IMG/VR virus record: IMGVR_UViG_3300036806_000085
Span: 1-44,161 of that record
Reading direction: 5' to 3' (one strand)
DNA length: 44,161 bases
Origin: a virus
Taxonomy: Duplodnaviria > Caudoviricetes
Shown: positions 5,325 through 44,161 of the stretch, piece by piece
Layout: the number at the start of each line of letters is the position of its first letter
Position numbering within the stretch: position 1 is the first letter of the stretch
The notes under the pieces: model-generated
Told to the model about the DNA's origin: nothing
Seen by the model: only the letters and a program-made list of their open reading frames with translations
Databases searched by the model: none
Position numbers and translations under genes: made by a program

Positions 5325-5397
5325 AGCTGTCGGCGCGAATCGAACGCGCAACCTGTCGTTTACGAAACGACTGCTCTGCCCGTTGAGCTACAACAGC
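5325..5397 (-). tRNA. tRNA-Thr(CGU), CCA not encoded
   Basis: GCTGTTG-TA-GCTC-AACGGGCA-GAGC-A-GTCGT-TTCGTAA-ACGAC-AGGTT-GCGCG-TTCGATT-CGCGC-CGACAGC-T folds as a cloverleaf. Confidence 0.93.
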
Positions 5398-7741: not shown

Positions 7742-9606
7742 GACGTCGACACTACGACCCAGCCGGGAATGTCGTGCGAATATCGGAGCACGATCGAGCC
7801 TTTCGCCGCGATCGTTACGTCCGCCCCCGTGGAACTGGTGATCCGATTCGCGGCCGCGGAGCTCGCGCTCGCGTTGGCGATCGTCATCACATGCGCGGAT
7901 GCGTTGAAAATCTGGACCAGACGGCCCGCGTAGTCCGCGACAAAGCCGGTGATCGTAAAATCAGCCGTCTCGCCGAAGATGCGGATAAACTCCATCCCGC
8001 CAAGGATCATGTTGACGAGTGGCAGCGCGACATCGTTGTTCGGCGTCGAGGAGAGCGCAAGCGTATTCTCCATCCCGAGGCTGTCGATCAGCGCCCCCGT
8101 GCCATGCCCAGAGCACCCGATCACGGTGATGAATCCGACCGAGTTGGACACACCCTGAATCTTGACCACGCCGCCCGACGTGCTGAGATACGCCCCGCGG
8201 ATCGTGAGGGCGTTGACGCCGATGATGCTGATGCACCCCTGCGCGTTCGTCTGGAGGAACAAACCGCCGGTCACCGAGCACGCCTCGGAGTTACCGACGC
8301 CCGTGCCAGAGTTGAAGGTCGTGTTCGTGTACTCCAAGAGTGGCGATCCAGAGCTCCCTTCCCACTCACCCCCGATAATCACATGTCCGAGCGCACCGGC
8401 CACGCGCACCTGCTTCGAGCACCCGTTGTAGTTGTTCGTGGCGAGTTCGTGCGCGTAGCCGCCATCATCCACGATACCCGCCACGCTGTTTGATTCGTTG
8501 ATCTGACAACGCTTGACTGAAATGCGGTTCGTGAACGCGCCACTGGCCCCGACAGTATGATCGGGACCGTTCACCAGCCAGATCGCGGCGCGCAGCTGAC
8601 TCTCGATGTTGCACAAGTCGATATCGCCGAGTTCGGTCTGATCAAAAATGACGCCGTAGTTGAACCCGCTGATGTGGACATTGAACAGCGAGACGAACGT
8701 GCCGCCGACATCGACATAGCCACCGCCGGTATTCGACCCGTTCGTGCAGACCAAGGCCAGATCACGGACGGAGGTTTTTGCGATATTCTGCACGTTGATC
8801 GTGCCGGGAAACTTGATGCCGTCGCCCGTCGTCGCCCACGTCAAGATGCTCATGGCCGGTGACTGTCCCTGCAGGATGACATTCGCCAGCATGGTCAGCG
8901 TCGCGCTGAACTTGTACGTGCCTGGGGGAACCAGTATCGTCCCGCCGCCGAGCCCGTGCACGTAGGTCATCGCCGCGGTGAACGCGGCCAGATTGTCGGT
9001 CGTGCTATCGCCGACGGCGCCGAAGTCTTTGACGGAGACGATTTCGGCCATCTTCGCATTGGCCGTTCGCTCCACCGCGCCAGTACCAGACTGCAGGAAG
9101 CCCGGATCCGCAATGACATCGGTGACGCCCTCGACTCCCAACCCATCACTGCGAACCCGCAGATAGTAGCTCGGCAGGAATGTCGAAATAACCGGATCCA
9201 CGTTTGCGGGAATCGATGGCACATGGAGCGCGAGCAGCGCGTCCGCCGCCAACTGTTGATCGACCATCATCCCGTAGTCGAGCGCATCTTCGTAATCCTC
9301 AGGGAAGAACTCGCCCTGATTGCGAAAGTCGGAGTCTTGCACCAGCGGAACGACGCGCTCGATCGTCAGCGTCCATCCGCTCGTCACGGCGTTCGTCGTC
9401 GTGATGCTCCCGCCATTCTTGGCCCCGATTCCGCCAGCGCTCACAGTGAAGTCTGCGGGATAGTTCAGCTGCGTCACGTTCCCGAGCAGATCCGTCGTGA
9501 ACACGTTCAGGTGCGTTGCGGCGAAGATTTTGTAGTTGAACGCGAACGGTCCCGTCGTTCCCGACCCGAGATAGTCGTTGCGCGTGTTCGTTGATGTGAC
9601 GGTCAT
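7738..9606 (-). CDS. Tail fibre/tailspike with beta-helix (pectate lyase-like) domain
   Basis: T7-gp17-like anchor (YLGSGTTGPFAFNYKIF...FRNQGEFFPEDYEDALD) followed by VSVKDFGAVGD...TILVPPGTY. Confidence 0.9.
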   Translation of the reverse strand: MTVTSTNTRNDYLGSGTTGPFAFNYKIFAATHLNVFTTDLLGNVTQLNYPADFTVSAGGIGAKNGGSITTTNAVTSGWTLTIERVVPLVQDSDFRNQGEFFPEDYEDALDYGMMVDQQLAADALLALHVPSIPANVDPVISTFLPSYYLRVRSDGLGVEGVTDVIADPGFLQSGTGAVERTANAKMAEIVSVKDFGAVGDSTTDNLAAFTAAMTYVHGLGGGTILVPPGTYKFSATLTMLANVILQGQSPAMSILTWATTGDGIKFPGTINVQNIAKTSVRDLALVCTNGSNTGGGYVDVGGTFVSLFNVHISGFNYGVIFDQTELGDIDLCNIESQLRAAIWLVNGPDHTVGASGAFTNRISVKRCQINESNSVAGIVDDGGYAHELATNNYNGCSKQVRVAGALGHVIIGGEWEGSSGSPLLEYTNTTFNSGTGVGNSEACSVTGGLFLQTNAQGCISIIGVNALTIRGAYLSTSGGVVKIQGVSNSVGFITVIGCSGHGTGALIDSLGMENTLALSSTPNNDVALPLVNMILGGMEFIRIFGETADFTITGFVADYAGRLVQIFNASAHVMTIANASASSAAANRITSSTGADVTIAAKGSIVLRYSHDIPGWVVVSTS

Positions 9607-12600: not shown

Positions 12601-15600
12601 AGCTCGCGGCCGTTCGCGAAGCCGAACATGTCGGCCACGACGCCCGCGTTCACGCCGCCCTTCTCGGCCGTCGCGAGAATCCCCCGCGGGAGTGACGCGG
12701 CGAACTCCGGTCCGTACGTCGCGACGATCGACTCCTTATTCAACTTCAGCTTCGGCGCGTCCGCCGGCAGGTCCGTCCCGTCCGGCGCCTTGCCGCGCAA
12801 GTAGTCGAGCGCCTTGTAGACCGGACGGTTGCCGACCTCTGCGCCGATTTCCGCACGCATCGGATCGCGCCACGCCTTCCACTCGGCCGACTGCTCGCGC
12901 ACGATGTCGCGCGTCATCTTCTGGCTGAGTTCTTCTTCGGCGGACTGGTGCGCATCGGCGATCGCCTTCCGGTAGCGGTCCGCCTGGTCCGCATTCATGC
13001 CAGCGGACGCGGGATCCCCGTACAGCGGTTCGACGTTCGCCGTGCGCTCGGCGTCCGCAATCTCTTCCTTCGACGCGAGCAGGCGATCGAAGACGCCGCG
13101 GACTTCCGGCGTGAGGTCGACGCCCAGCGCGCGCACGTTCTTGTAGATGTCGAGCAGCCAGTTCTTGAACCGGAAGAACGCCGTCTTCAGGGTAGCGCTC
13201 GGTGCCTTGCCTTCCATCAGGTACGCTTCAAACCCGCGCGCAAACTGTTCGTGCTGCTCGCGGGTGAACGGCTTGTCACCCTCGGCGCCGACCCATTCGC
13301 GAATCGTTTGGTAGTCGGCCTTCAGGTCTTCCGTTGCGCTCGGCGCTTTCGCCAGATCGCCCAGAACTTCGAGATAGAAGTGTCCCGTTTCATGGATGAA
13401 GGTTGAGCGGTCTGCGTTCTTCAGTAGCTCGATGCGGAACTCGCGGCCATCGCCGAACGTGATGCGACCGCGCGCCGCCTGATGCAAGATGTTCGGATCG
13501 TTCGGATCGAACGCGCCCGTGTTGCCCGTCGAACTCTTGATCTGTTCCGGTTTGAATACGACGTAGTGATCGGCTACGACGTTCGAGAGTCCCGCCGCGT
13601 CATCAAGGTTCCGGATGATGACGCCGTCCTTTCCATCCGCTTTCGCCTTCCTAATAAGTTCGGTCAGACTGCCTTCAAAGCCAGCGAAACTTTCGCCTTT
13701 CGCGTCGACAACGGCCGGCTTCTTCATCGACAGGTATACCGGCACCACATTCTGCCCACGCATCCGACTTTCGGTGTCCGCTCGGAACTGCGCTTCGAGC
13801 TTTTCGTACTCCTCGACTTTCGCATCGTGCGTCTGCCAATCGCCGCGCTTTTCGGCAGCGTCGGCTTCTTCCATAATCTTCAGCACCGCATTGTCCGTCG
13901 CGGCGTAGTGCGCGTAACTGTCGGCAACGCGCGGGCTGTCGGTAAAGAAAAATCCGATCTTCGCGCTATTTGCGCGCGTCGTGTCGCCAAGCTTACCAGC
14001 ATCGAACTCGGAGAAATCGCCGACCGTGCCGTGATAGACCTCGAGCGGCGTCCCGTCATCCTTCACGACTTTCGACTTGCCAAACCACTTCTTGAACTCT
14101 GGCGTCTCCGTGACGACTGGCTTCGCCGCCTGGTTGAACTCGAAGCCGGTAGGTTCCTGATTCACCGCGTTGCGCGTGCCCGACATGTACGCTTCCGCGT
14201 GATCCATGCCCCGCTTCGTCATCTCGGCTTCGAGCTTCGCGATCGTCTTGGCGCGCGCCGCGATGCGGCCCATCGCCTTCATCGCCCCCGGCTTTAGGCC
14301 GGTCCACGTTGCGCCTGTCCCGGTGTCGATCGCGGACGGGGCCGTATTCTCCACGGCGTTCGCGTCGATCAGCAACTTGTACTCGTTCGCGAGTTCTTCC
14401 GGCGTCGCCTTCGCCAGATTCTTCAGCCGACCGCTCGCCGTCCGTGGCCGTGCCAGTTCCGCCGCCTGCGGTGATCCCTCCTCTTCGTTCAGTCGCGCCG
14501 CTTCGGCTTCATCCGAGAACGTCGGCGTGATGCTCTCGATGAACTTCGCGCGCCCCTTCGCCGTTTCTGCGACCGCCGGTTCCGCGCTCTTGGCTTGGAC
14601 GTCGAGCTCGGCCTTCGCGGTCCCGAGTGTCGCTTCCTGCGCGCTCGCCGCCTCTGCCGCGCGCCTCGCCGTCTCGAGCTTCGCGGTGGCTTCCGGGGTC
14701 GGTTCGAGCGGCCCGCGCCCGATGGTGAGCCCGTAGCGGTTGAAGAGTTCGCGCGCGCTGACGTTCGCCCGTTCGCCTAGATTGCGAAACGCCGACTCGT
14801 AGAGTTGCGCCTGCGCTTTCGCGGCGCCCGGCCCGACGCCCGCCTTCACCAGCTGATCTTCGACGTCCGCGCGCACCTGCGCTGCGGACTGTTCCATCGG
14901 CTCCTGCTCACCCTTCGCCTGCTTCGTCGCTTCGTCCGCCAGTTCCGTCATCGTCGCCGGAAGCGACTGCAAATACTCCTGCGCTTCGCGGAACGACATC
15001 CCGTCCGGTCGCGTGCGCGCAACGTCGAGCAGCCCATCGAAGTGCTCCGTCGGCGCGACCTTCGTGATGTAGTCGGACAGCGGAATCGCGAGCCTGGCGC
15101 CGGTGGCCTGCGCATCGTGGTACGCTTTGCCGTCGTCGCCCATGATGTCGGCCGCGGCCTTCGCCGGTGACGCGCCGCGGTCCGACCAGTACTTATCCCA
15201 CTCGCCGGACTGGAAGTACACCGTCGCCGCGTCCTGCCCGCCCGTGGCCGTCTCGATCAGGCTCTTCAGGCGGTCCGGTACCGATGCTGTCGTGCCAGCG
15301 TCGTTGACTGCCCGGCCGACCTCGGCGAGTACCTGCGCGTCGTGTTGCGCGCGCATCGCATCTTCGGCCTGATCGGTCGCCTGCGCCGCTGCGGCAGCGG
15401 TCTCCGGGTGAAGCATCGCGCGCCGGCTGGCGCCGACCGCCTCCTCCGCGCCGCCGAACGCCAGCATTTGCAAGGTGGTCGAGATAGCGCGCGCCGGATC
15501 AACCGGCTCCCCGATCGCCGCCTTTCCCGCCTCCGTACCGGCAGCGACACCAACGGCAGGAGCCGCAATCGCCGCAGTCTTCGCGCCGACCTTCGCCACA

Positions 15601-16817
15601 ACGCTCGCGTCCTCGCCAGCGAGTCCAGCCGCCTTCGCACCGATGATGTTGAACAGGGTCATCACTGCGGCGGACGTGAGCCCTGCTTTCGTCGCCTTGC
15701 TGCGGATGTCCGACATCAACTGGTGATCACCGAGCGCCTTTTCGACGGCCGCTGGATCAGCCAGATCAACGCCACGCTTGGTGAACTCTTGCTCGATTTC
15801 GGACGCGATACCAACCCCGGACGCGCCAACGAACGTGCCGGCGATCCCGCCAGCCACGTTCCCGACCACCGGCACTTCACTTCCCGCCGCAGTGCCGAGT
15901 GCCGTTCCCGCGAGGATCGGCGCCATCGACGCCAAGCTCTCGACGTTCTGATACGCGAAGCCCTTCACGCGGTTCAGTCCGGCGACGTGCGCACCAATGA
16001 GGCTGATGGTTTCCCCCAGCGTGTTCGCCGCCGCGGGGTCCACGGCCATCGGCTGGTTCCCGGCGATCGCCTGGCCGAAGTTCACCAGCGCGTTGAGAAT
16101 CCCAGCCTTCCGCGCCGGACCGTTTCCGGCCATGACCGCAGACCGCGCCGCGTCCAAATCGCCTTCGTGCTGCTGAATCGCTGCTGCATACTCCTTTGCA
16201 TATGCAGGAGCTTGTTCGCGGAGCGAGTTCGAACGCACCTTCGCGGCGGCAATGTCGGCTGCGGCTTGCGCTGGCGTGGCGTGTCCGAACGCCGCGGCGA
16301 GCAGGTGCGTCGAGAGCACGAGGTCCGACATGCCGGTGGCGATAGCATTTCCCGTCGCATCCAGCGGCCCCGCGTTCTCGTCGTCGATCTTTGACGGCGG
16401 CGTGAGCAACTTGGCGCCGCGATCAACCTGCGCGAGCGGCGCAATTTCATGCTTCGCGATCGAGGCGTTGTCCGGGTCGGACAGCCAGTTCCGGAGTGTC
16501 GGACTGACACTATCTATCTGGTACTGCGTCGAGTGCTGGTCCTGCGCCTTCGCGAGTTCGTCGTAGTTCTCGTCGACAAACGCTGGCGACATGTTGAGCC
16601 GGCCAGCCAGATCCAGCACTTTCGCGTGCCGTTGGGGGTCTTTCTGCGCCGCAACGAACGCGGCGCTCGCCGTTTCCGGTGACGGCGTTACGACGGGCTG
16701 TTGGACGCGCGGGCGCTGAACGACCGGCGACGGCGTCCCTTGCACTGGCGCCGCTGGCGCTGGCTCGTCTTCTACGGCCGCGCCGCCGACGGGCACCGCG
16801 AGGTCTTCACCGGCCAC
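9606..16817 (-). CDS. Giant internal virion (ejection) polyvalent protein with ADP-ribosyltransferase-like and HExxH metallopeptidase-like domains
   Basis: 2403 aa in the T7 gp16 position. Motifs FKKWFGKSKVV...VYHGT...GFFFTD...DGVII...VFKPEQIKS and STFIHETGHF...HEQFARGFEAYL. Confidence 0.85.
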   Translation of the reverse strand: MAGEDLAVPVGGAAVEDEPAPAAPVQGTPSPVVQRPRVQQPVVTPSPETASAAFVAAQKDPQRHAKVLDLAGRLNMSPAFVDENYDELAKAQDQHSTQYQIDSVSPTLRNWLSDPDNASIAKHEIAPLAQVDRGAKLLTPPSKIDDENAGPLDATGNAIATGMSDLVLSTHLLAAAFGHATPAQAAADIAAAKVRSNSLREQAPAYAKEYAAAIQQHEGDLDAARSAVMAGNGPARKAGILNALVNFGQAIAGNQPMAVDPAAANTLGETISLIGAHVAGLNRVKGFAYQNVESLASMAPILAGTALGTAAGSEVPVVGNVAGGIAGTFVGASGVGIASEIEQEFTKRGVDLADPAAVEKALGDHQLMSDIRSKATKAGLTSAAVMTLFNIIGAKAAGLAGEDASVVAKVGAKTAAIAAPAVGVAAGTEAGKAAIGEPVDPARAISTTLQMLAFGGAEEAVGASRRAMLHPETAAAAAQATDQAEDAMRAQHDAQVLAEVGRAVNDAGTTASVPDRLKSLIETATGGQDAATVYFQSGEWDKYWSDRGASPAKAAADIMGDDGKAYHDAQATGARLAIPLSDYITKVAPTEHFDGLLDVARTRPDGMSFREAQEYLQSLPATMTELADEATKQAKGEQEPMEQSAAQVRADVEDQLVKAGVGPGAAKAQAQLYESAFRNLGERANVSARELFNRYGLTIGRGPLEPTPEATAKLETARRAAEAASAQEATLGTAKAELDVQAKSAEPAVAETAKGRAKFIESITPTFSDEAEAARLNEEEGSPQAAELARPRTASGRLKNLAKATPEELANEYKLLIDANAVENTAPSAIDTGTGATWTGLKPGAMKAMGRIAARAKTIAKLEAEMTKRGMDHAEAYMSGTRNAVNQEPTGFEFNQAAKPVVTETPEFKKWFGKSKVVKDDGTPLEVYHGTVGDFSEFDAGKLGDTTRANSAKIGFFFTDSPRVADSYAHYAATDNAVLKIMEEADAAEKRGDWQTHDAKVEEYEKLEAQFRADTESRMRGQNVVPVYLSMKKPAVVDAKGESFAGFEGSLTELIRKAKADGKDGVIIRNLDDAAGLSNVVADHYVVFKPEQIKSSTGNTGAFDPNDPNILHQAARGRITFGDGREFRIELLKNADRSTFIHETGHFYLEVLGDLAKAPSATEDLKADYQTIREWVGAEGDKPFTREQHEQFARGFEAYLMEGKAPSATLKTAFFRFKNWLLDIYKNVRALGVDLTPEVRGVFDRLLASKEEIADAERTANVEPLYGDPASAGMNADQADRYRKAIADAHQSAEEELSQKMTRDIVREQSAEWKAWRDPMRAEIGAEVGNRPVYKALDYLRGKAPDGTDLPADAPKLKLNKESIVATYGPEFAASLPRGILATAEKGGVNAGVVADMFGFANGRELVDALSKAGNKNTLIDFLTDQRMRDEHGEQPSVPDIKEAAVEAVRGGVKRAQLLKLEAEHLASDDFAAFKGLVKKLNRRAAPDEEVRKQADSVIGSTKVRDIRPDLFEKAAERAHRESTDKFLAGDFQGALDAKEKERMATAVFDAATDAKAQFEKSLDEFKDVFLSDARLEKAYDLNFVNGARAMLAELGIGSSDKGATSYLSMVKEYAPDAYENVQAITEDVRNLGIRDYRDLTTDQFTELRETVDQLWTLARKAKQVVMDGKVQELADVLAPIVQEVVDRKNERVAARGVKKSLDPTDKLANTALSFEAGARRVESWARFMDGLNVLGPLSKVVREVFNATNKYRGHKTDVLERVAKTTEALRGLPEVHDLIAHELGGYTFKDRAELLGAMLHTGNAEGAASNLVKLIVGRGWGTIDENGVLDRGNWDAFVRRMQKEKILTKADYDWLQSSWDYFEELKPELQKAYYAVNARYMKEVGHTPFETPFGTYEGGYYPAIGDTNVAGGAEIENAMRASEDQLLGTDGKFLMTQPASGMTKTRTGKTWPLVMDAGQFPRHLDAVLKYIHMAPPVREVFKVFNHRDFREAMAGVNPAMISDALIPFLRAASSQRSSAPETTAIGKAFSRAINYVRQGAMQQVVGANLVILAEQVLHTSALQAMRTPDNKARVYYHDVAGAAARIVLSPNKLTDMIHEASATIATRDHARLRAAEVQYKDIMDPSKLRTMQEFAAHGVGFVSNVMSSLMDKAVWLGARDRAEQRGIHGQDAVDYADNVVREGLGGHNPEDIAEIQRGTAMQKAMLGLYGFFNAKANQLGTDAFAKTMTDAGLKSSKQRMAAVYVFGLLALSVSGAAARDVIGGRKKKDDETWTDVLAEWAGWGQFEAVARFVPGGNVAVQSAKFAFHHAGASADNMLSSPTATFLDESAGAFRAGHRAVTGEQITGKDVKDALGFFGTLLHLPLKTLARPISYQMDLQQGKTTPTGPIDYTRGLITGQRGR

Positions 16818-19098: not shown

Positions 19099-19292
19099 TA
19101 CGCTACCCTCGCTGCGGCGTCTTCCCGCTCGAGCTTTTTGAGTTCCCGCTTCGCGACGAGCCGGTGCTGCTGGTCGTCGTTGATATTCACACCGAGCCGG
19201 ATGATCGCCTGTCGAAGTTCTGCGATACGCAACGTCCGGCGTGCGTGCGCGCGGCCGTGATCCGTCGGGTGTTGTGCGCGTCCAGGCATCAT
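19098..19292 (-). CDS. Small basic hypothetical protein
   Basis: 64 aa. TGATG and TAATG overlaps with both neighbours. Confidence 0.6.
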   Translation of the reverse strand: MMPGRAQHPTDHGRAHARRTLRIAELRQAIIRLGVNINDDQQHRLVAKRELKKLEREDAAARVA

Positions 19293-20299
19293 CAATCCCC
19301 CAGCACGTAGCGGAAAATGAGCGGCGCCACAATCGTCGCGTCCGAGTGAATGTCGAACGTCGGCGTGTCGACATCGAGTTTTGACCACGTAATCTTCTCC
19401 CGTGGCTGTGCCCCAGAATAGCCGCCGTACGACACGTGCGCATCAGTGATCTGGGTGAAGGATGCCCAGAACGGCGTCTTCTTCTCCTGCATTTCCGTGA
19501 GGAGATACGGCACCACGCAGATTGGTCCGTCGCCCGCAATGCCGCCGCCGATTTGGAAGAAGCCGATGGGAGTCTTTTTCGCCGCTGCGCGATACCAGTT
19601 CCCCATCTCTTCGAACCATTCGGTGCCGTCACGGACCGTCTTGTTCTTGACCTCGCCCTTTGCGCGGAGCCCGGCGTACAGATTGCCCGTCGTCGAATCT
19701 TCCCACCCTGGCGTAAAGATCGGGATGTTCATATCCGCCGCCGCGAGCAACCACGAGTTCGCGGGATTCCCCTCGTACTTGTCTGCCAGCACGCCAGAGC
19801 GGATGACGTCGTACAGGAACTCGTACGGGAACTTGCGCACGCCGGCCGCGTCTGCCGCCTTCCACGCGGCCGTCAGTGCGTCACCGACCGGCTTCATGGC
19901 TTCGACTTCGGGGATGGTCGAGTCCGTCACGCGCGGATGCCCCGCCTTCGCCAGCTTCATTTCCTGCTCTGGCGTCAGGTTCGCGTAATTCGGGAGATAG
20001 GTGTACGAGTTGAAGCCGACCAAGTTGAAGAGGTCTTCTTCGAGGTTTGCCCCCGTGCACCCAATCGCGCAGACGTTCCGTTCACGAATCATCCGCGCGA
20101 GCGTGATCCCGATTTGCGCGGTGCTCATGGCGCCAGCGAGCGTGACGAACATATCGCCATCCTGCTCGAGCAAACGAACCCACATCTGCGCCGCTTCCAC
20201 CGTGGTCGCCGCGTTGTAGCCTTGGAAATCGGTTTCCAGTATCCGCCCGAACGGACCGGGCGAACGCCGCAGCGGGGCTTTCGTATCGAAGAGCGACAT
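19292..20299 (-). CDS. Deoxyhypusine synthase-like / homospermidine synthase family protein
   Basis: TLAGAMSTA, CTGANLEED, PGWEDST, FQIGGGIAGD, SYGGYSGAQPREKITWSK (catalytic Lys region) and SDATIVAP motifs, all intact. 335 aa. Confidence 0.93.
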   Translation of the reverse strand: MSLFDTKAPLRRSPGPFGRILETDFQGYNAATTVEAAQMWVRLLEQDGDMFVTLAGAMSTAQIGITLARMIRERNVCAIGCTGANLEEDLFNLVGFNSYTYLPNYANLTPEQEMKLAKAGHPRVTDSTIPEVEAMKPVGDALTAAWKAADAAGVRKFPYEFLYDVIRSGVLADKYEGNPANSWLLAAADMNIPIFTPGWEDSTTGNLYAGLRAKGEVKNKTVRDGTEWFEEMGNWYRAAAKKTPIGFFQIGGGIAGDGPICVVPYLLTEMQEKKTPFWASFTQITDAHVSYGGYSGAQPREKITWSKLDVDTPTFDIHSDATIVAPLIFRYVLGD

Positions 20300-32178: not shown

Positions 32179-32742
32179 TCAGCTCCGCGCCTTTGCGGAT
32201 GTCTCGATGAACGGGAAGGCGCGTGCGGCCGCCACGGGACGACGTTTCACGTAAAGCTGATCCATCAGTTCATAGCCCTGACGCTCGACTAAGTGGCCGA
32301 AGTTGAGCTCGTCTTTGGCTTTCGTGTGATGGCAGATGACGTCGATGCCTTCGCCGAACAATTCCTCTTCGCAGAACTTGAAGAACCGAATCGGCATCGT
32401 CCCGCGGTGATTCGGCTGGATGTAAATGACGTCCTGCTGCGCCTGAAGGATCTGCCGGTAGTGGAGGTTCGGCGTAACCACGAACAGGGCATAGCCCACA
32501 AGCGTCCCGCGCGGCACGATGATCTCGAACGGCTCGTCTCCGTAGACCGCGGCATCGTCCGTCCGCGCGGTGAAGGTGCGCAGGGCGCCGTTCCGCTCGA
32601 GCGCATCGTAGCGCTCGCGATCCGGCGTCAGTTCGATGTCTTGGTAGTGTGCGACTTCCTTCCAGTGCGCGAAGAGCAGGGGCAACGCCTCGTCCCAGAT
32701 GGCCTGGGTGAGCGGTTCGCGATGGAATCGCACTAATGGCAT
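32179..32742 (-). CDS. GNAT-fold acetyltransferase-like protein
   Basis: HWKEV...PD..RY..LE..G...LVGY..F.V...LHY...AQQDVIYIQPNHRG pattern. Leaderless start at ATG 32742. Confidence 0.75.
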   Translation of the reverse strand: MPLVRFHREPLTQAIWDEALPLLFAHWKEVAHYQDIELTPDRERYDALERNGALRTFTARTDDAAVYGDEPFEIIVPRGTLVGYALFVVTPNLHYRQILQAQQDVIYIQPNHRGTMPIRFFKFCEEELFGEGIDVICHHTKAKDELNFGHLVERQGYELMDQLYVKRRPVAAARAFPFIETSAKARS

Positions 32743-32748
32743 AACACA

Positions 32749-32777
32749 ACAGTAGCGTCGCAATCTGACACGCGCAA
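32749..32777 (-). promoter_or_regulatory. Promoter at the head of the virion operon, leaderless
   Basis: TTGCGC-17 nt-TACTGT-tgtgtt-ATG. Confidence 0.7.
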
Positions 32778-32809
32778 GATGCAACGATTCAAAAAGACAC
32801 AGGTGGGGT

Positions 32810-32825
32810 TGTTTCACGTGAAACA
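32810..32825. promoter_or_regulatory. parS: parS centromere site (chromosomal ParB/Spo0J consensus)
   Basis: TGTTTCACGTGAAACA is a 16/16 match to the widespread bacterial parS consensus. Intergenic. The palindrome extends to 18 bp. Confidence 0.9.
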
Positions 32826-32867
32826 ATCGAGCGGCGTATCCACCCCAATACAGGATACTCCGCTCGA
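32820..32867 (-). terminator. Intrinsic terminator whose U-tract runs into parS
   Basis: TCGAGCGG-A-GTATCC-11 nt-GGATAC-G-CCGCTCGA followed by TTGTTTC. Confidence 0.65.
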
Positions 32868-32960
32868 CCGTCAATCCACCCAACCGGTGCTTCGAATGTG
32901 CCCCGCCACTCCGCTCACTTCATCGTCCGCCTCCGGGTGTGCATCGCTGTGCCAAGGACG

Positions 32961-32989
32961 ATAGTACAACCGATTTCGCCAAGCGTCAA
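32961..32989 (-). promoter_or_regulatory. Strong sigma70-type promoter just downstream of tRNA-Met
   Basis: TTGACG-17 nt-TACTAT. Confidence 0.75.
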
Positions 32990-32991
32990 CA

Positions 32992-33065
32992 TAGCGGGAG
33001 TGGGATTTGAACCCACGGCCTCGCGGTTATGAGCCGCGCGCGCTACCAGGCTGCGCTATCCCGCG
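32992..33065 (-). tRNA. tRNA with CAU anticodon, initiator(fMet)-like acceptor stem, CCA not encoded
   Basis: CGCGGGA-TA-GCGC-AGCCTGGTA-GCGC-G-CGCGG-CTCATAA-CCGCG-AGGCC-GTGGG-TTCAAAT-CCCAC-TCCCGCT-A. C1:U72 mismatch. Confidence 0.93.
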
Positions 33066-33104
33066 TCAAAGGTGGCATGTTGGCAACGCCTCCCGCGCAC
33101 CCCG

Positions 33105-33133
33105 AAAATGCTCCCGCCTGCTGGCGAAGTCAA
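33105..33133 (-). promoter_or_regulatory. Possible promoter for tRNA-Met
   Basis: TTGACT-17 nt-CATTTT. The -10 is weak. Confidence 0.35.
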
Positions 33134-33149
33134 GAGCCGCGCCGACGCC

Positions 33150-33509
33150 TCAGTCCTTCGGGACGAAGTATATGCAGGTCGCGCAGCGCATCCCGACGCT
33201 TCGATGCTGCCACGTGTCGGCGACGTCATCGGTCGGCATACCTGCGGTCGTTTTCAGTTTGTGGTCGCCGCACCAATCTCGGCGCGTGACGACCGGATAG
33301 CCGTTCATCGTAGGCGCGTGCCGGCGACACCGCCCTAGTGTTGGGTGGTCGGCACTCCGTTTCGACGAATCTGATGGCGCTGATGCGCTTGCGATACTGC
33401 CGTCTTGATAGACCGGAGCGTACTGTCCTGTTTTTACTCTTTCCTCAATCAACTCATGCGGGTAGCCCTTGGCTTCCATTTCTGCGATTGTAAGAAATCT
33501 CGCTCCCAT
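33150..33509 (-). CDS. Small Cys-rich metal-binding protein
   Basis: GRCRRHAP...DWCGDH and CATC motifs. GGAGG RBS. Confidence 0.75.
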   Translation of the reverse strand: MGARFLTIAEMEAKGYPHELIEERVKTGQYAPVYQDGSIASASAPSDSSKRSADHPTLGRCRRHAPTMNGYPVVTRRDWCGDHKLKTTAGMPTDDVADTWQHRSVGMRCATCIYFVPKD

Positions 33510-33527
33510 CGTGTCCTCCCTAAAGTT

Positions 33528-34994
33528 TTATGCGTCGCTATTCGGATCCCAATCAGATCGGTGCCGCGAACTCGATCCGCCAGCCGCAACCACTTCCGGC
33601 GCGTTCATGGACGGCTGATCGACTACGGCGTACGTCACGGTGAGCGCGTCCCAGCGGTCCGGTGAGTGCCCGTTCAGGTTCTTCTTGATCTGGTCCTTCT
33701 CGAGCAGGCGCAGCTTCCCGTGGTCGTAGTAGAACCGTTGGGCCAGCGCTTCCCGTCTCAGTTGCGGGTCGTCCGGCCACGCGGCACCGTCCTTCACCGC
33801 CTCGGCGGCGCGATACCCAATCTCGGCCCGCTTGTTGAAGAACCGCGGGTCGTCCGGCTTTCCGGAGAAGTTCACCGGATAGATCGAGACGCCCGCGAGT
33901 GATGCCTGGTCGATCACGCCGCTGGCGAAGCCGCCAGTGTCGTCGATCAGTTCGAGCTCGGACCCCCACTTCTCTTTGCTCGCCAGCAAGGCGCTCGCAA
34001 TCTCGATCGAGTTCTGCCCGCGCATCGCCTTCAGCTTCCGGACGGCCAACCCCTGCCGCGGCGCGAACACGGTCGCGTCGTCACCAAAGCGGGCGACGTC
34101 GACGCCGATGCGCTTCTGCACGTACTGGTAGACGTCCGGCCGCAGGTGTCGCTTCACGGCTTGGTCGATGTCGTCGGCGCTCAGCAGCGCGTTGATCGCG
34201 GCCGTCGGGAACTTCCCTAGCACCGTCGCCATCACCCACGCGTTGTCGCGGCCGTACTGCTCGATCTGCTCAGCGGCCCATGCGTGGTCAGCGCGCGGAC
34301 TCCGGTCGGGATCCTCAGGGTCGTTCGTGATGATGATGATGATCCACTTGTGCGGCTCGTTCGCGCTGGCGTGGTAGAGCATCCCGTCGTGCGAAGTCGG
34401 GTTGCCCGCCTGCATGATCCGCCCGAACTCGCAGTTCGAGAACCCCTGCTCGGCGGACCGGAGCACGGCCGGCGGGATGTCGCCCGACTCGTCGATGAAG
34501 TAGGCGATGAACTTCGAGTGCAGACCCGACAGCGTGCGCCCCTGCTTCTCAACGTCGGCCTTCGCCGACCACGTACGCGCCGAGATGAACCAGGTGTCCG
34601 GGTGTTCCTTCGCGAAGAACCGCTTCTTCGTATGCTCGAACGCCGCATCCAAGAACTTCGACTGTGCCTTCCAGACCGCGATTTCTTTCCAGAGATTGTC
34701 CTTCAGGTTGTCGCCGGATTCCGAGATCGCGAGCGCCGACGGATGACGCCCAGGCGCCGCATAGCACGCCATGAAGTTCAGCGCGCACCACGCTTCCACT
34801 GCGGTCTTGCCGGGTCCGACGCACGCCTGCAAGGAGAGGCGCGACTTGGCTGTCGCCTGATCGCCGAACGCGCGCAACGCCTTGACCTGCCAGCGGTCCG
34901 GCGTCACGCCGAACTCTTCGACCACCATCTTCACGGGGTCATGCCGCCACTCGGCAAGGCGCTGCTGCGCACGCTCGATGACCGATTCAGACAT
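33528..34994 (-). CDS. terL: Terminase large subunit
   Basis: Walker A ACVGPGKT, Walker B YFIDES, GNPT coupling motif, nuclease IGVDVARFGDD and SPDRWDAL. Confidence 0.96.
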   Translation of the reverse strand: MSESVIERAQQRLAEWRHDPVKMVVEEFGVTPDRWQVKALRAFGDQATAKSRLSLQACVGPGKTAVEAWCALNFMACYAAPGRHPSALAISESGDNLKDNLWKEIAVWKAQSKFLDAAFEHTKKRFFAKEHPDTWFISARTWSAKADVEKQGRTLSGLHSKFIAYFIDESGDIPPAVLRSAEQGFSNCEFGRIMQAGNPTSHDGMLYHASANEPHKWIIIIITNDPEDPDRSPRADHAWAAEQIEQYGRDNAWVMATVLGKFPTAAINALLSADDIDQAVKRHLRPDVYQYVQKRIGVDVARFGDDATVFAPRQGLAVRKLKAMRGQNSIEIASALLASKEKWGSELELIDDTGGFASGVIDQASLAGVSIYPVNFSGKPDDPRFFNKRAEIGYRAAEAVKDGAAWPDDPQLRREALAQRFYYDHGKLRLLEKDQIKKNLNGHSPDRWDALTVTYAVVDQPSMNAPEVVAAGGSSSRHRSDWDPNSDA

Positions 34995-35069
34995 TCACTG
35001 TCGCTTGTGCAGGTGTTTTGCCGCGATTCTCGGCACCCTCTGTCGCGATGCTGTGTCCTGTCGCGACAC

Positions 35070-35624
35070 TCATGCTGGCTTCCTTTCCATCGAGCCCGCG
35101 ACCAGTTCTTCGAGCCCGATGCGCGCGCCGGCTGAGGTCAGATCGACCTTGTCGCCGTACTGCTTTGGGTTCGCCATCTTCGCCCGCCAGCGGTAGTTAT
35201 CCTCTTTCAGCCGTGCGAGTTGCACGTCCTCTTTCGTGGCGGTTTCGACCGTTTCCGTGCTGCGATCTTCCCACGATTCGCCGCTGGCTTCGCGCGCGCG
35301 CGCGTACAGTGCATGGAGTTCGTGATCTTGGGCTTTCCACATCCAGAGTTGTCGCCACGTCGTACGCTCGGCGGAGCACGCGGCGTGGATGCGTTCGCCT
35401 TGGGTGATGCGCGCGCAGACGGCTTCGAAGATGTCGCGGACGGTGCGCTGCTTGGGTGGTGGGGCGACGTAGATGGTGAGCGCGACGCGCCGGTCTTCCG
35501 CCGAAGGTTCCGGCTTCGGTGGGATGGCAGCGACCCGGCGCGCGCGCTTCGCGTTCCGATCGGTGGTCGGCTTCCGTCCTTTCTTCACTCTTTCACCCTT
35601 TGCGTGGTTTTTCACGTGCTTCAC
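35070..35624 (-). CDS. terS: Terminase small subunit
   Basis: ICARI..GE HTH-like region, YARAR, ARLKEDNYRWRAKMANPKQYGDKVD (Sf6-like). Upstream of terL. Start uncertain. Confidence 0.85.
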   Translation of the reverse strand: MKHVKNHAKGERVKKGRKPTTDRNAKRARRVAAIPPKPEPSAEDRRVALTIYVAPPPKQRTVRDIFEAVCARITQGERIHAACSAERTTWRQLWMWKAQDHELHALYARAREASGESWEDRSTETVETATKEDVQLARLKEDNYRWRAKMANPKQYGDKVDLTSAGARIGLEELVAGSMERKPA

Positions 35625-35683
35625 GCCGACTGCCTTCCGGCCAGCGCTTTCCGGCGCTGATAGACGCTCTCGATCTGCCGGCA

Positions 35684-35950
35684 CTACGGGCACCAGTTCG
35701 GCGCCGCGCCCTGCTGCTTCGCCCACCGAAAGTCTTTGCCGCAGTAGCACTTCCGGAGCAGGATGCGGGACACGCGCGGCTCCCGCTTCTGGATGGCAAA
35801 GGAGGGGTTCTTGGCGATCAGGGACGTGAGCGCTGCGTGGTGCGCGCAGACCTTCACGCCCGCGATAACCGTGACCGCATGTTCGCCGTCCATGAACCCA
35901 CACAACCCATACTGCCCGTGGCGATTGCCGCCGCGCGTGATGCTGCTCAC
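35684..35950 (-). CDS. Small Cys/His-rich hypothetical protein
   Basis: CGF...VCAHH and CYCGKDF...WCP motifs. GTGA overlap with the upstream gene. Confidence 0.55.
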   Translation of the reverse strand: MSSITRGGNRHGQYGLCGFMDGEHAVTVIAGVKVCAHHAALTSLIAKNPSFAIQKREPRVSRILLRKCYCGKDFRWAKQQGAAPNWCP

Positions 35951-36801
35951 GACTCGGGCGGCTTGCGTGCCGCTTCGAGCAAGGATTTCTGGCAAAGCAG
36001 CGCCGCGTTCACTTCGGCTTCCGTGAGCGGTTCGCCGCGGAACAGTTCGCCCAGCTTCGGCTCAATCAGTCGCCCACGGTTCTCGAGCGCCAAGCGGAAG
36101 TTTTCCGTGACGTATTCCAGCAGTCGGTCGAGTCGGTCGTTCCCGATCGCTCGGCCGTCCGGTCCGACGATGCCGTGCGCCATCTTCCCGTTGGTCACGA
36201 CCTTCTTTGCGTTCTTCGCATCACGCGCTTCCAGTTCAGCGGCGATTTTTCCGAGAATCGGGTAGCCTTCGCGCCACGCCTGGACTAGCCGCGTGTTCTT
36301 GTTCAACTGCTCGATGCACCGCTTCAGGAGTTCGGCGTTGTGCATCGTCGTTTCTGCCACGCGGTCCAAGTCGAGCCGAGTGCCGGCGCCGCGGTTGTTG
36401 AGCTCGCGCATGGCGTACGTGATGCCCAGCGTGTTGCAGAGGTTCAACCGGATCCAGTTCGCGAATCGGTGGACCTGAATGAAGACCTCGGCTACTAACC
36501 GGACCGGCAACGTCCGGAGTTGGTCGCGGGCCGGGACTTCGACGAAGCTCTCGCACGCACAGCTTTCGACATTGCATTTCTTCTTGCCGCCCGTGGCGAC
36601 CTGTTCGTGCTCGGCGCGCAGGTGCTTGCAGCCAAAGCACGGCATCGCCAGCGGCTTCAAGACGCCCATCGGCCGCGGGAACGGACGCGACTCGCCCGTC
36701 ACGGGAACCGTCATCCCTGCTGGCGTCTCATGCTCTGCGGGCGGCTGGTCGGATGCGTTGGGGATGGACCCGACGACCTTGCCCTGTTCGTTCTGCGTCA
36801 T
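35947..36801 (-). CDS. Hypothetical protein with Zn-finger-like motif and coiled coil
   Basis: CFGCKHLRAEH...CNVESCACESF. Confidence 0.75.
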   Translation of the reverse strand: MTQNEQGKVVGSIPNASDQPPAEHETPAGMTVPVTGESRPFPRPMGVLKPLAMPCFGCKHLRAEHEQVATGGKKKCNVESCACESFVEVPARDQLRTLPVRLVAEVFIQVHRFANWIRLNLCNTLGITYAMRELNNRGAGTRLDLDRVAETTMHNAELLKRCIEQLNKNTRLVQAWREGYPILGKIAAELEARDAKNAKKVVTNGKMAHGIVGPDGRAIGNDRLDRLLEYVTENFRLALENRGRLIEPKLGELFRGEPLTEAEVNAALLCQKSLLEAARKPPES

Positions 36802-37734
36802 TTACAGCGCCTTCTTGACGGCAGCTTCGACGGTCAGCGTTTCGTCCTTGATCCACTTCCAGAGCGCCACGACGCCCGCGTTGACGCCCGTCACGATCAC
36901 GCCGATTTCCTCGCGGAACTGCGTCTTCGGGATACTGACCATAATGCTCTTGCCGGCGACCTCACCCGTCTTCGTTTCGACCACCGCGACCGTCGACCCG
37001 ACTGGCAGGTGCTCGAGCACATCATCGGCCCCGATCGGATGCTCGGCCTTCCCCTTCGTCGGATGGTCCACCGTGACTGCCGTCTCCGATACCTTCGTGG
37101 CAATCGTGCCAACGGGCGCTGAATCCAGCGCGTGCGTCTGGTCCACCGCGAACGGCAGTTCGACCGCCGGCGCTCCCCTCACGCTGCCGATGTCGATCAC
37201 GTCCGCGTCGGCGCCGACCGTCGCGCTACCCTCGGGCGCTCCGCGTGGTGCTGGCGGCGAGACCACCGCGACCGGCGCCCCGTCGTAGAGGTCCGTCGCG
37301 GTCGCGATCGGCAACGCAATGCGCGCGGCGACGACCGCGATGGCCGGCTCGGCGAGCGGGATCAGCGCTTCGAGGGAATCCGAGAGCAGTCCGTCGCTTT
37401 TCAGGTTCTCGAGCATTTCGAGCGGCGGAATGCAACTCACCATCACGATCGGGAAGCCGTCGTTGTTGAGCACGATAACGTTGCCGAGTGCTGGGTTCGA
37501 TGGGTCCGATCCGGCGGCGAGCAGCGTGTCGAGATTCGCGTTCATCTCGGCGTTGTATCCCTCGCGGTTGATGATCGAGGCGTCGAACGTGAACGCTCCG
37601 CCTGGCGCCAGCACGCCACCGCGAAACTCTGCGCGTAACTCTGGGCCACTGCCCGCTCGCATCGTTGCCAACTTCGCGATCTGCTCGGCCGTTTCCGGTG
37701 ATCCGACGACGACGGTTCCCTGTTTCAGCTGCAT
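36802..37734 (-). CDS. Hypothetical acidic protein
   Basis: 310-aa ORF with GGAG RBS, abutting both neighbours. Confidence 0.75.
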   Translation of the reverse strand: MQLKQGTVVVGSPETAEQIAKLATMRAGSGPELRAEFRGGVLAPGGAFTFDASIINREGYNAEMNANLDTLLAAGSDPSNPALGNVIVLNNDGFPIVMVSCIPPLEMLENLKSDGLLSDSLEALIPLAEPAIAVVAARIALPIATATDLYDGAPVAVVSPPAPRGAPEGSATVGADADVIDIGSVRGAPAVELPFAVDQTHALDSAPVGTIATKVSETAVTVDHPTKGKAEHPIGADDVLEHLPVGSTVAVVETKTGEVAGKSIMVSIPKTQFREEIGVIVTGVNAGVVALWKWIKDETLTVEAAVKKAL

Positions 37735-37735
37735 G

Positions 37736-38335
37736 CTACTTCTCCGGTGAGTGGGTGGGTACAGTGGGTAACACAGTGATGGTGAGTTCTAAACGTGGCC
37801 GGTCAATGTCCACACCGGCGCGGATCCACGTGACGCGGTCCAGTTGCGAGTCATCTTCGTACACGATTCCGGTGAGGGCATCGTGCACCATTTTCGCGTA
37901 GTTCGCAATATCCCGGCGCGAACTTCTGTTCGGCTCGAACATGCGCGCCACGAGCATCAACCGTCCTTGGAGTGGGTGAACCGGATAGGCGCCGTTCGTC
38001 ATTTGGTCACGAAGTTCGTCTTCGGCTTTCTTCTTTCCAGCGCGATACGCCGCCGACAGAATCAGCACGGGCCTTCCGCCGCGGTACGCCGGCGCGTACT
38101 TGGCGTTGTCCGGGACGAGGAATGACCATGGAAGCACCAACTCGGCACACGCCACAGCCAGTCGACGTGCGCACATTTCTGGTAATTCGACCGCCACTTC
38201 GCGACCGGCTGGTCCGTCGTCCGTGACGCTGCGGCCGGCGCGGCGATTGATGTTCCGTCGGTCAACCTCCGCGCTCCTCTCGGCGACCGTCATGTCGTTC
38301 CAGTTTTTCACGACTTCCGAATCCAGAACTGCCAC
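37736..38335 (-). CDS. rusA: RusA-family Holliday junction resolvase
   Basis: RRDIANYAKMVHDALTGIVYEDDSQL matches the RusA D-x-(D)-N-x-x-K...D-A-L...DD motif. Start uncertain. Confidence 0.88.
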   Translation of the reverse strand: MAVLDSEVVKNWNDMTVAERSAEVDRRNINRRAGRSVTDDGPAGREVAVELPEMCARRLAVACAELVLPWSFLVPDNAKYAPAYRGGRPVLILSAAYRAGKKKAEDELRDQMTNGAYPVHPLQGRLMLVARMFEPNRSSRRDIANYAKMVHDALTGIVYEDDSQLDRVTWIRAGVDIDRPRLELTITVLPTVPTHSPEK

Positions 38336-38489
38336 GTGAGATATGCGACACTCACCACGATCAGCACGAAAGACGCGAGGTCGAACGCTTCAAGCCGATG
38401 AAACCAGCGCCGTTTTGTGCCTGCCATTTCCGACTCCTCTCGTTGCCGTGGTGGGTTCCCGCGTACACGCGCACGTAGTAGGCTGTTGC

Positions 38490-38605
38490 TTAAAAGCTTT
38501 TAACTTCAACGACATAGATGTAGCGACACGGGAAAGCGAACCAGCTTTGTTGATAGATCGTGTGGATATGTGCACAAGTCGGCACTTTCCCACAGAGTTT
38601 CCACA
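38490..38605. other. Putative replication origin: AT-rich palindrome plus four DnaA-box-like 9-mers
   Basis: TTAAAAGCTTTTAA (38490-38503), TGTGGATAT (38561), TGTGCACAA (38569), TTTCCCACA (38586) and GTTTCCACA (38597), all in a ~275-bp non-coding gap. Confidence 0.6.
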
Positions 38606-38610
38606 GACAG

Positions 38611-39021
38611 TTAGGCAGGAATCGGCACGTCGCGCACCAGCGAATCCCACACTTGGAGCTCACGGTGCCGGCGCTCGAACCGTGTCTTGACGAGCTCGCC
38701 GACCGCCTTCTTGATCAGTCCATTGTTCGCTGCGATCCGGAACAGCGGGCCGAGTGCGCTGGCGTTGTGCGTGGTCGGCGTGGATCCTTCGAGCGCCTTC
38801 CAGACATCGTCGGCCGAGAGTTTCGCCTGGTGCCTGGCGACCGAGACGAGCGCCGCGTACGCCGTCTGCTTCCAGCGGTTGTCGGCGTGGTCGTGGACGG
38901 CCTGTATTCCGGCCTCAGTGGCTTCGTGGACGGCCAAACTCCCTGCGGCAAGGGGTAAGTCCGCCCACTGGTCGGTCGGCGGCGCCTTGGAGCCGATGAT
39001 GTCGTCATCAAAGTACTTCAT
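38611..39021 (-). CDS. Hypothetical protein, possible winged-helix
   Basis: LSADDVW...ALGPLFRIAANNGLIKK...HRELQVW. AGGA RBS. Confidence 0.7.
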   Translation of the reverse strand: MKYFDDDIIGSKAPPTDQWADLPLAAGSLAVHEATEAGIQAVHDHADNRWKQTAYAALVSVARHQAKLSADDVWKALEGSTPTTHNASALGPLFRIAANNGLIKKAVGELVKTRFERRHRELQVWDSLVRDVPIPA

Positions 39022-40573: not shown

Positions 40574-41274
40574 GGCGTCTCCTGTTGCGCTGTGAGGTAG
40601 GCCCGAAGTTCTTTCGCGCACCATGCAATGTTGTCTGTATCGCCTCGAACAACGGCGTCTCCGTGTTCGAGTTCGTGCAGGATGGCCGCGAGGCGGCTGT
40701 CGGTCGTGATGGGTGTGGGCGTCTCCGCCGACGCTCCTGAGATGAGATAAGGAATGGTTTGCGTCAGTGCGTCCGCAGCTTCGCGGCGCGTGATGCTCAC
40801 CCCATGCCGAAGGAGAATCTTCGCGAGCCGTTCTGCCGCTGGCGCATCTTCTTCGACCGGCTCATATGATGGTCTACGATTTGCGGGCGTCTCCGCCGAC
40901 ACGGGGGACTCGGCTGGCGACTGATTGAGCAGGAAGCGCACGATGGCGTCCCGCTGGTCGAACGGCATTTTCTCCGCAAACCGTGGCCACCGCTCATTCA
41001 GTGTCCGGTGCAGTTGTGCCACGACCTCACGGTAGTCCGGTGTGGCGCTCTCCTGCTCTGGAAGTCCTTCGACATGATCGGCTACCTTCGCCTGGGCTCT
41101 CGTGAGCAGGATAACCGCGTCCGTCAGGTGAATGGATGCTCCGGCGCGTTCCACGGCATCCACCGCGGCGGCGATTGCGCGCTCTGTCGGCGTCCATTGG
41201 TCCATGCAGTTGCGGCGAGGGAAGTCGCTTCCAAAACGCGGCACGGTACGCGGGAGGTTCGTGGGATCGGTCAC
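40570..41274 (-). CDS. Hypothetical modular phage protein
   Basis: PRRNCMDQWTPTERAIAAAVDAVERAGA...LTDAV domain plus Pro-rich linkers. GGAG RBS. Confidence 0.7.
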   Translation of the reverse strand: MTDPTNLPRTVPRFGSDFPRRNCMDQWTPTERAIAAAVDAVERAGASIHLTDAVILLTRAQAKVADHVEGLPEQESATPDYREVVAQLHRTLNERWPRFAEKMPFDQRDAIVRFLLNQSPAESPVSAETPANRRPSYEPVEEDAPAAERLAKILLRHGVSITRREAADALTQTIPYLISGASAETPTPITTDSRLAAILHELEHGDAVVRGDTDNIAWCAKELRAYLTAQQETP

Positions 41275-41792
41275 GGGGCGATCTCCCGCGCAGCGAACTC
41301 TCGCACCAGCCGCACGGCCGCGGCCCCACTCGTCATCGCCTCATATTCGGCCCCACTGAGTTTGCCGTTCGCCAGAAACGGCGCGCAGGCCTTCTCGTCG
41401 TGCCACAAGGCGGAGAATCGTTTGGCGATCTGCTCGCCAGAAAAAGCGCTCTCCTGCTCCGGAAGGGCGGTTGGAATCGGTATTTCCAATCGGGACACGA
41501 TCAGTGCGTTGAGACTGACGCCCGCTCCGCTGGCTTCCTCGGCCATCGCGCGGTGCAAGTCAGCGCCGAGTCGGAGCAAGATGCGACCCGAATAGGTGCG
41601 GTTGGGTGCTTCACCGCGTGTCTCGCACATCGCGAGATAGTCGTCCACCGACGCGTGAAAGGCCCACTCGATTCCCTCAACCGATGTCGCCTCGAAGGTC
41701 ACGACATCAACTACGGCATCCACGGTGCCGAACAGCACGTGTGCGTCATCATCGAACACCACGCTCGCGCGATACCCGCGATACGGCTTCAT
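41271..41792 (-). CDS. hicB: HicB-family antitoxin with C-terminal extension (no cognate hicA)
   Basis: YRGYRASVVFDDD..LFGTV...VTFEATSV...AFHASVDDYLAMC...YSGRILLRL...LH...GVSLNALI. Confidence 0.88.
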   Translation of the reverse strand: MKPYRGYRASVVFDDDAHVLFGTVDAVVDVVTFEATSVEGIEWAFHASVDDYLAMCETRGEAPNRTYSGRILLRLGADLHRAMAEEASGAGVSLNALIVSRLEIPIPTALPEQESAFSGEQIAKRFSALWHDEKACAPFLANGKLSGAEYEAMTSGAAAVRLVREFAAREIAP

Positions 41793-43700: not shown

Positions 43701-44161
43701 GGGGTCGGCTCCTGAGGGGCCTGTCCGACCGCGCATGCCCCAATCAGCACGCGGACATACTCCTTCAGCAAGCGCGTAGCGAGCGGGCGGTTCGTCTTGC
43801 GCCACGCGTCCGCAGCCGCATCCGCAGCCGCATCCGCAGCCGCAGCCGCAACCGCATACGCAACCGCATCCGCAGCCGCAGCCGCATACGCAACCGCAGC
43901 CGCATACGCAACCGCATCCGCAGCCGCAACCGCATCCGCAACCGCATCCGCAGCCGCAGCCGCAACCGCATCCGCAACCGCATCCGCAGCCGCATACGCA
44001 ACCGCAGCCGCATACGCAACCGCATCCGCAGCCGCAACCGCATCCGCAGCCGCAACCGCATACGCAACCGCAACCGCAGCCGCAACCGCATCCGCAGCCG
44101 CATACGCAACCGCAGCCGCATACGCAACCGCATCCGCAGCCGCATCCGCGGCCGCATCCGC
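43697..44161 (-). CDS. Ala-rich repeat protein, C-terminal part
   Basis: The Ala frame ends ...AADAWRKTNRPLATRLLKEYVRVLIGACAVGQAPQEPTP* (TGA 43699-43697). In frame with ATG 647 when position 1 is equated with 44031. Confidence 0.8.
   Translation of the reverse strand, partial: ADAAADAAADAVAYAAAVAYAAADAVAAAVAVAYAVAAADAVAAADAVAYAAAVAYAAADAVADAVAAAAADAVADAVAAADAVAYAAAVAYAAAAADAVAYAVAAAAADAAADAAADAWRKTNRPLATRLLKEYVRVLIGACAVGQAPQEPTP
43808..44161. repeat. Degenerate hexamer tandem array, right part (includes terminal repeat copy 44031-44156)
   Basis: Visible directly. Confidence 0.95.

Follow-up and report, generated by a model that had tools for sequence, protein, structure and literature searches.

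How a phage begins to copy its DNA when no gene for doing so is recognised in its genome is the question raised by IMG/VR record IMGVR_UViG_3300036806_000085, a virus of the Caudoviricetes; its whole stretch of 44,161 nucleotides, called here the window, was analysed. Two short elements are at issue: a cluster of DnaA boxes and an exact copy of a host-type parS site. An earlier note on this DNA had proposed that the phage imitates the oriC-parS region of its host and is kept as an episome by host DnaA and host ParB, through these cis sites alone. The explanation that we prefer, and to which the compared sequences give about an even chance, is that a podovirus-like soil phage would start replication at a copy of the host oriC by means of host DnaA; its parS would load host ParB separately and would not mark an episome.

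The cluster contains four 9-mers, each with one mismatch to TTWTNCACA and none perfect, at 38561(-), 38569(-), 38586(+) and 38597(+), and a fifth, weaker DnaA-like box is found at 38548(-). Among genomes simulated with an order-1 model, 1 in 1,000 had four boxes within 60 bp, and with an order-4 model none of 1,000 did; the oriC-like cluster described earlier is thus real and beyond chance. Boxes of the TGTGGGAA type, similar to the pair on the plus strand, are found in the dnaA-dnaN spacers of Gemmatimonadota. No 50-mer of the genome is richer in AT than the adjacent candidate unwinding region (see the table; 36% GC), and the unwinding-element score of the locus, 23.5 bits, is the best in the genome, the maximum of 60 null simulations being 15.3. 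No iteron array was seen at the box site, the promoter scan made no call there, and no other candidate for an origin emerged. The segment 38336-38610, indicated earlier as the candidate origin, overlaps an open reading frame (ORF) of 39 aa (38308-38427). On the strand that carries the DnaA-trios, five of the six TAG triplets within 38441-38620 share one 3-nt register (38476-38556), a regularity seen post hoc.

Scans of the window with Pfam and PHROGs (90 ORFs) and with NCBIfam (38 ORFs) detected no integrase, initiator or Rep protein, helicase, primase, polymerase, single-stranded DNA-binding protein or ParA/ParB. The absence claimed before is therefore borne out by three libraries of hidden Markov models, which also confirm the identities of Bet, Gp157 and RusA; about 20 ORFs are still without annotation. 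Fold and Atlas searches for the ORFs at 36802-37734, 35947-36801, 1382-2080 and 2077-2388 returned nothing usable, a weak result that leaves an initiator fold possible, and the conserved 232-aa and 103-aa ORFs gave no match to replication proteins. Two unannotated ORFs were folded, and the negative for an own Rep or RNA origin rests on the model libraries and on Rfam, whose scan of the window revealed no family besides the tRNAs. Between tRNA-Met and parS no structured RNA is indicated (z = -1.36, no Rfam family), and only an 8-bp hairpin arm is common with the relative G002.

G002 is the closest relative that could be retrieved, a 41.6-kb contig in a Thermoanaerobaculia metagenome-assembled genome (MAG), with 19 proteins in common with the window and 60% identity in the terminase large subunit. 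Immediately after its homologue of the winged-helix gene that borders the boxes in the window, G002 contains tandem boxes, a GC spacer, six CTA-type trios, an AT tract, an opposed tandem and a parS-like site. The same order is present in G406, a circular phage of 42,890 bp that has a different virion module and three early genes in common with the window; its slot carries three trios and a parS-like site, and is followed by RusA. Neither phage gave a match to an initiator, a primase, a replicative helicase or an integrase (scans of 27 and 22 genes, most of them non-structural), the integrase negatives being limited in that serine integrases were not the object of a family-wide search over the 49 records. 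Conversely, helicase, primase or loader matches are found in six of nine other relatives with this virion module (G001 and G441-G444, where ORFs of at least 170 aa were scanned, and G448, scanned without that limit), and none of them has the unwinding element. A winged-helix initiator-like ORF was recognised by eye in G004, and G445 has a three-box cluster and no replication match. Indeed, among the virion-module relatives the box cluster alternates with own helicase and primase genes. Initiation by host DnaA appears the likeliest start because this slot holds a full oriC element in G002 and G406, and other relatives encode a helicase, primase or loader. The origin half of the earlier cis-site model is strengthened by the relatives' slot and by this alternation; the half concerning maintenance is not, for reasons given below with parS.

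The pattern of a tandem followed by trios was found in 78 IMG/VR stretches, forming 36 clusters, and dnaA or dnaN was present in none of the fetched DNA; one cluster of nine members was discarded as a coding coincidence. Eight near-complete records that bear the element were partly annotated: an own initiator, DnaB or primase is present in G438, G409 and G415 and a superfamily 2 helicase in G416, while G406, G407, G412 and G419 gave no match. G438 (locus L440) belongs with 26 related loci (L378-L452) to phages of about 34-35 kb and 65% GC that carry a dense DnaA-box array and the unwinding element; this array lies downstream of an own initiator and DnaB, the genes having been examined in G438.

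Several observations weigh against initiation by host DnaA alone. The element does not imply such a mechanism, because G438, G409 and G415 have an own initiator, DnaB or primase. The initiator-like ORFs of G409 and G004 were missed by PHROGs; lack of matches is thus no proof, and a cryptic initiator in the window is possible; a winged-helix gene abuts its boxes. G002 has a HerA-like ATPase fused to its homologue of this winged helix, and G005 (4 ORFs scanned) has neither a replication match nor a convincing cluster. The 23.5-bit score of the window derives almost wholly from the boxes, and at most two trios are found near a box. The accessible part of PMC8287927 sets, as the criterion for a basal unwinding system of oriC, three or more DnaA-trios no further than 16 nt from a box, and the accessible part of bioRxiv 10.1101/2022.03.18.484894 likewise gives three proximal trios as needed; since the window falls short of this number, its origin copy may be decayed.

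This shortage of trios bears on a different explanation, namely that the boxes serve as a decoy or a regulatory site for DnaA, or are the decaying relic of an origin that the relatives retain, and that replication starts by another route, for instance recombination-primed or R-loop-primed restart. The trio array for unwinding is absent from the window, its candidate unwinding region is degenerate with respect to G002 and G406, as is the position of their tandem, and RNA-based, Rep-less phage origins do exist (PMC7157519, in the part accessible). However, the tandem of the window retains the 8-bp period, and no AT tract in the genome is stronger than the one beside it; in the portion of PMC8287927 that could be accessed, a predicted unwinding element is also missing from about 15% of chromosomal origins. 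No promoter was called at the boxes and no other origin candidate emerged. We regard a decoy or relic as improbable.

A second possibility is that an unrecognised phage protein, most likely the winged-helix product of 38611-39021, is the true initiator or an adaptor, with DnaA as an accessory. In P1, F and pSC101, DnaA is accessory to an own initiator. The predicted fold of the protein (predicted local distance difference test score 74) has its best match in a cullin winged-helix domain (Z 9.3, root-mean-square deviation 1.9 over 83 residues), and the protein is a candidate adaptor or cryptic initiator. In favour of this, the boxes are bordered by the end of a small winged-helix gene in the window and in G002, G406 and G409; other element-bearing phages do have an own initiator or DnaB, and the libraries failed to recognise initiator-like ORFs elsewhere. 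Against this, the model shows a single winged helix of generic type whose top matches include no initiator, distant homologues either have no box cluster beside them (L462) or are separated from it by about 0.75-1.9 kb (G408, G407), no iteron array was seen at the site, and the 232-aa and 103-aa ORFs gave no match to replication proteins. A profile of the winged helix found no relative among viral contigs. We consider an initiator or adaptor of this kind a minor possibility.

The parS of the window and its distance of about 5.7 kb from the boxes were correctly described before. It is the only site within three mismatches, and an exact copy occurred in none of 2,000 Markov-simulated genomes. 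A terminator-like hairpin (32845-32829, minus strand) runs into parS, its T-rich tail forming the left arm of the site, and a promoter-like site, read by eye, lies about 32 bp away. In G002 this slot upstream of the GNAT gene is occupied differently, a TTGTCCACA-type DnaA box lying over a promoter-like region (L363:1530-1550). Exact parS sites are found in about 5,700 IMG/VR stretches, against about 7-23 expected for an assumed database size of 30-100 Gb; several small viral contigs of 6-16 kb (L008, L023, L024, L026, L065 and L069) carry three to five of them.

Within the clade, the 14-bp parS core was counted with one mismatch allowed and the reversed motif served as control. The strict search (at most three mismatches to the exact consensus) had missed the G002 site, which has one mismatch to the relaxed consensus, and the relaxed motif was picked after that site had been seen. 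Sites of this type are present in 9 of 14 relatives collected through the terminase (control 1/14), or in 6 of 11 when the three picked for parS are left out. Among 35 records with the unwinding element they are found in six (control 1/35, p = 0.11), fewer than in the terminase relatives (6/11 vs 6/35, p = 0.02). None of 134 viral parS loci reaches 26 bits for the unwinding element in the fetched DNA, at least 55 of these loci being short. A joint pattern of opposed tandem and adjacent parS was searched for as well, and of the five stretches returned G406 alone was convincing. Across phages, parS thus behaves as a trait separate from the origin mimic.

These counts bear on the idea of a temperate mini-chromosome, that is a prophage with a copy number of about one per chromosome, for which host DnaA would provide initiation and host ParABS, acting on the single parS, segregation. 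In its favour, four phages (window, G002, G406 and G407) combine an origin mimic and a parS-like site with the lack of an integrase, and in two of them, G002 and G406, boxes and parS-like site are contiguous. Moreover, G002 was binned in its MAG as a stand-alone contig and encodes a LexA-type DNA-binding domain. The winged-helix profile, run on three samples totalling 401 MAGs, revealed no close integrated copy, only G002 itself and two distant matches, although this absence is weak support for an episome. On the other side, parS is frequent in the terminase clade whatever the origin type, and occurs together with a tyrosine integrase in G448 and G451. The lytic phage phi29 carries five parS sites bound by host Spo0J/ParB (PMC2731898, accessible part). 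Library scans of the window gave no match to a CI-type or S24 repressor, the only regulator candidates being a small helix-turn-helix protein and a HicB-like protein; no LexA-type box is present in its intergenic regions, neither dif/XerD arms nor a bias in FtsK-orienting polar sequences were seen in six genomes, and the major genes lie on one strand. A prophage kept as an episome would be expected to need such a repressor, LexA box or dif site. Episomal maintenance through parS is thus not upheld, and the spacing taken earlier as an echo of the chromosome fares no better, since the distance varies from abutting in G002 and G406 to 7.5 kb in G407. A prophage of this type seems unlikely to us, and we are equally doubtful that the soil lineage of the window, G002, G406 and G407 consists of natural mini-chromosomes that encode neither initiator, helicase and integrase nor partition protein and persist by copied oriC and parS with host DnaA and ParABS. 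In G448 (L498:1537-2500) the parS lies between the integrase and a putative attP resembling the 3' end of transfer-messenger RNA, all within about 100 bp; the latter stretch is below the Rfam threshold.

Both cis sites have counterparts in candidate hosts. The parS consensus is found within two mismatches in 32 of 35 candidate-host MAGs (31 of 34 leaving out the unpublished G458), and the same unwinding element is present between dnaA and dnaN, the boxes of Gemmatimonadota being degenerate like those of the window. The best near-full-length matches to the tRNA-Met(CAT) are 85-86% in four Gemmatimonadota MAGs and at most 80% in Thermoanaerobaculia, which points weakly to Gemmatimonadota. The host probably belongs to Gemmatimonadota or Acidobacteriota, on weak evidence.

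For replication started by host DnaA we infer the following course from these sites. Host DnaA would bind the boxes and open the adjacent AT-rich tract; host helicase, primase and DNA polymerase III would then be loaded, and replication would at first proceed in the theta mode. Concatemers would later be made by Bet, Gp157 and RusA and resolved for packaging. Separately, host ParB on parS may help to place the incoming phage DNA in the cell, bring in SMC or dampen the putative late promoter nearby.

The window resembles the oriC of B. subtilis, with its boxes 6/7, GC spacer and DnaA-trios (accessible parts of PMC8287927 and bioRxiv 10.1101/2022.03.18.484894), in the tandem of 8-bp period and the AT tract. 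This unwinding system is complete in G002, G406 and the candidate hosts. The differences are that the phage is without dnaA and dnaN, that the window is poor in trios near a box, and that the relatives add a second, opposed tandem. As for parS, phi29 is a phage with its own protein-primed replication. Like phi29, the window has a host-type parS near a late promoter and no match to an own ParB among the scanned ORFs; unlike phi29, it has one site instead of five, carries a cluster of DnaA boxes and infects a host that probably does not sporulate, the phi29 sites serving spore entrapment according to what is accessible of PMC2731898. A host-type parS in a phage is therefore already known, and the window mainly extends this trait to another lineage.

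The phage-plasmids P1 and N15 have no integrase; they encode ParA/ParB and parS repeats of their own and replicate from a RepA origin. Mycobacteriophages of the RedRock type form parABS prophages with neither integrase nor Rep, which use RNA-based origins and their own ParAB in extrachromosomal lysogeny; Rep-less extrachromosomal prophages are thus known as well (PMC7157519, accessible part). The window is like all of these in that no integrase was detected, and unlike them in that no own partition proteins were; as to a Rep, which the RedRock type lacks, the library scans of the window gave no match. Extrachromosomal lysogeny has been demonstrated for the P1, N15 and RedRock types, whereas the window is known from sequence alone. 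PMC10286716, as far as its text is accessible, discusses only phages with an own ParB. Among podoviruses of the phiV10/epsilon15/BPP-1 type, the major capsid protein of the window is about 45% identical to those of phiV10, TL-2011b and Tyrion, and Bbp16/Bbp19-like genes are present; isolates of this type have an integrase and replication genes of their own, both of which went undetected in the window. To our knowledge, DnaA does no more in known replicons of phages and plasmids than assist an initiator that they encode themselves, and no DnaA-only phage origin was found in the open-access literature, judged by titles and abstract openings. The window would add to the known ways in which phages borrow host factors by means of cis sites.

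In IMG/VR the record is listed as 'linear', with an estimated completeness of 100%. The first 126 nt are identical to 44031-44156, the last 5 nt being unmatched; the join sits within an Ala-rich repeat, and the joined ends form one in-frame ORF of 326 aa. A 99%-identical match to the join protein was found in a second assembly of 43,955 bp. The phage genome is probably complete, because the join closes in frame and its protein recurs in that assembly; the earlier description of an apparently complete genome thus stands on in-frame closure and the completeness estimate, and is weakened by the 'linear' class, the mismatch of the end and the position of the join in a repeat. The assembly of G002 (L365:1500-1643, L363:1-240) also ends in low-complexity Ala-rich repeat genes, at different loci. 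In the contigs, 58% read, of the single soil-metagenome run listed, which is possibly the source, only short or repeat-derived phage pieces were found. The cumulative GC skew is uninformative, since it has no polarity switch over the genome and all major genes are on the minus strand.

The virion module is podovirus-like, with a head-tail connector, a GP7-type capsid, tail tubular proteins and a large internal virion protein. The latter (9606-16817, minus strand) has 2,403 aa and contains ART-PolyVal ADP-ribosyltransferase and LPD22 domains. In the tail and internal-virion cluster there is a deoxyhypusine synthase-like gene (19292-20299, minus strand) with 80% identity to G002, the flanking virion genes having 37-45%. 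A PAS-domain protein (7103-7741, minus strand) is encoded immediately upstream of the putative holin and endolysin. Short counter-oriented ORFs that have the motif TREDDGTFFYL in common lie between the lysis genes and the early ones in the window (4958-5083, plus strand) and in L364 (9897-10103, minus strand).

Table. Origin, parS and other features of the window (strand "." for unstranded features)
Feature	Position	Strand	Remark
Tandem DnaA-box pair TTGTGCACA/ATATCCACA	38548..38577	-	8-bp period, then one CTA trio only and a weak third box
Two DnaA-like boxes TTTCCCACA, GTTTCCACA	38586..38605	+	opposed to the tandem
AT-rich tract with palindrome TTAAAAGCTTTTAA (38490-38503)	38473..38522	.	short CTA runs; candidate unwinding region
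Predicted generic winged helix, 136 aa	38611..39021	-	gene ends at box cluster; G002 homologue 70% identical, same placement
RusA-like Holliday junction resolvase	37736..38335	-	downstream of box cluster in window and G406
Exact host-type parS TGTTTCACGTGAAACA	32810..32825	.	16-bp palindrome, extends to 18 bp (32809-32826)
Promoter-like site TTGCGC-17-TACTGT	32742..32777	-	ATG 6 nt on, for GNAT-portal-capsid operon; by eye, below scanner threshold
tRNA-Met(CAT)	32992..33065	-	
Terminase large subunit	33528..34994	-	query for collecting relatives
Bet/RecT annealing protein	2864-3895	-	model libraries
Gp157/Gam-like protein	3895-4503	-	model libraries
Excisionase-like helix-turn-helix protein, 71 aa	4580..4795	-	strong promoter-like site in front; one of two candidate regulators
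tRNA-Thr(CGT)	5325..5397	-	between lysis and early genes; no integrase adjoining
HicB-like protein	41271-41792	-	other regulator candidate; antitoxin-like, no HicA partner detected

G002 and G406, with their cleaner versions of the origin, are better test cases than the window. If replication is indeed started by host DnaA alone, short vector origins for Gemmatimonadota or Acidobacteriota could be drawn from these phages. Replication of such a phage would be tied to the cell-cycle controls of the host and would compete with the chromosome for DnaA, and this strategy would account for part of the many complete metagenomic phages that carry no replication gene.

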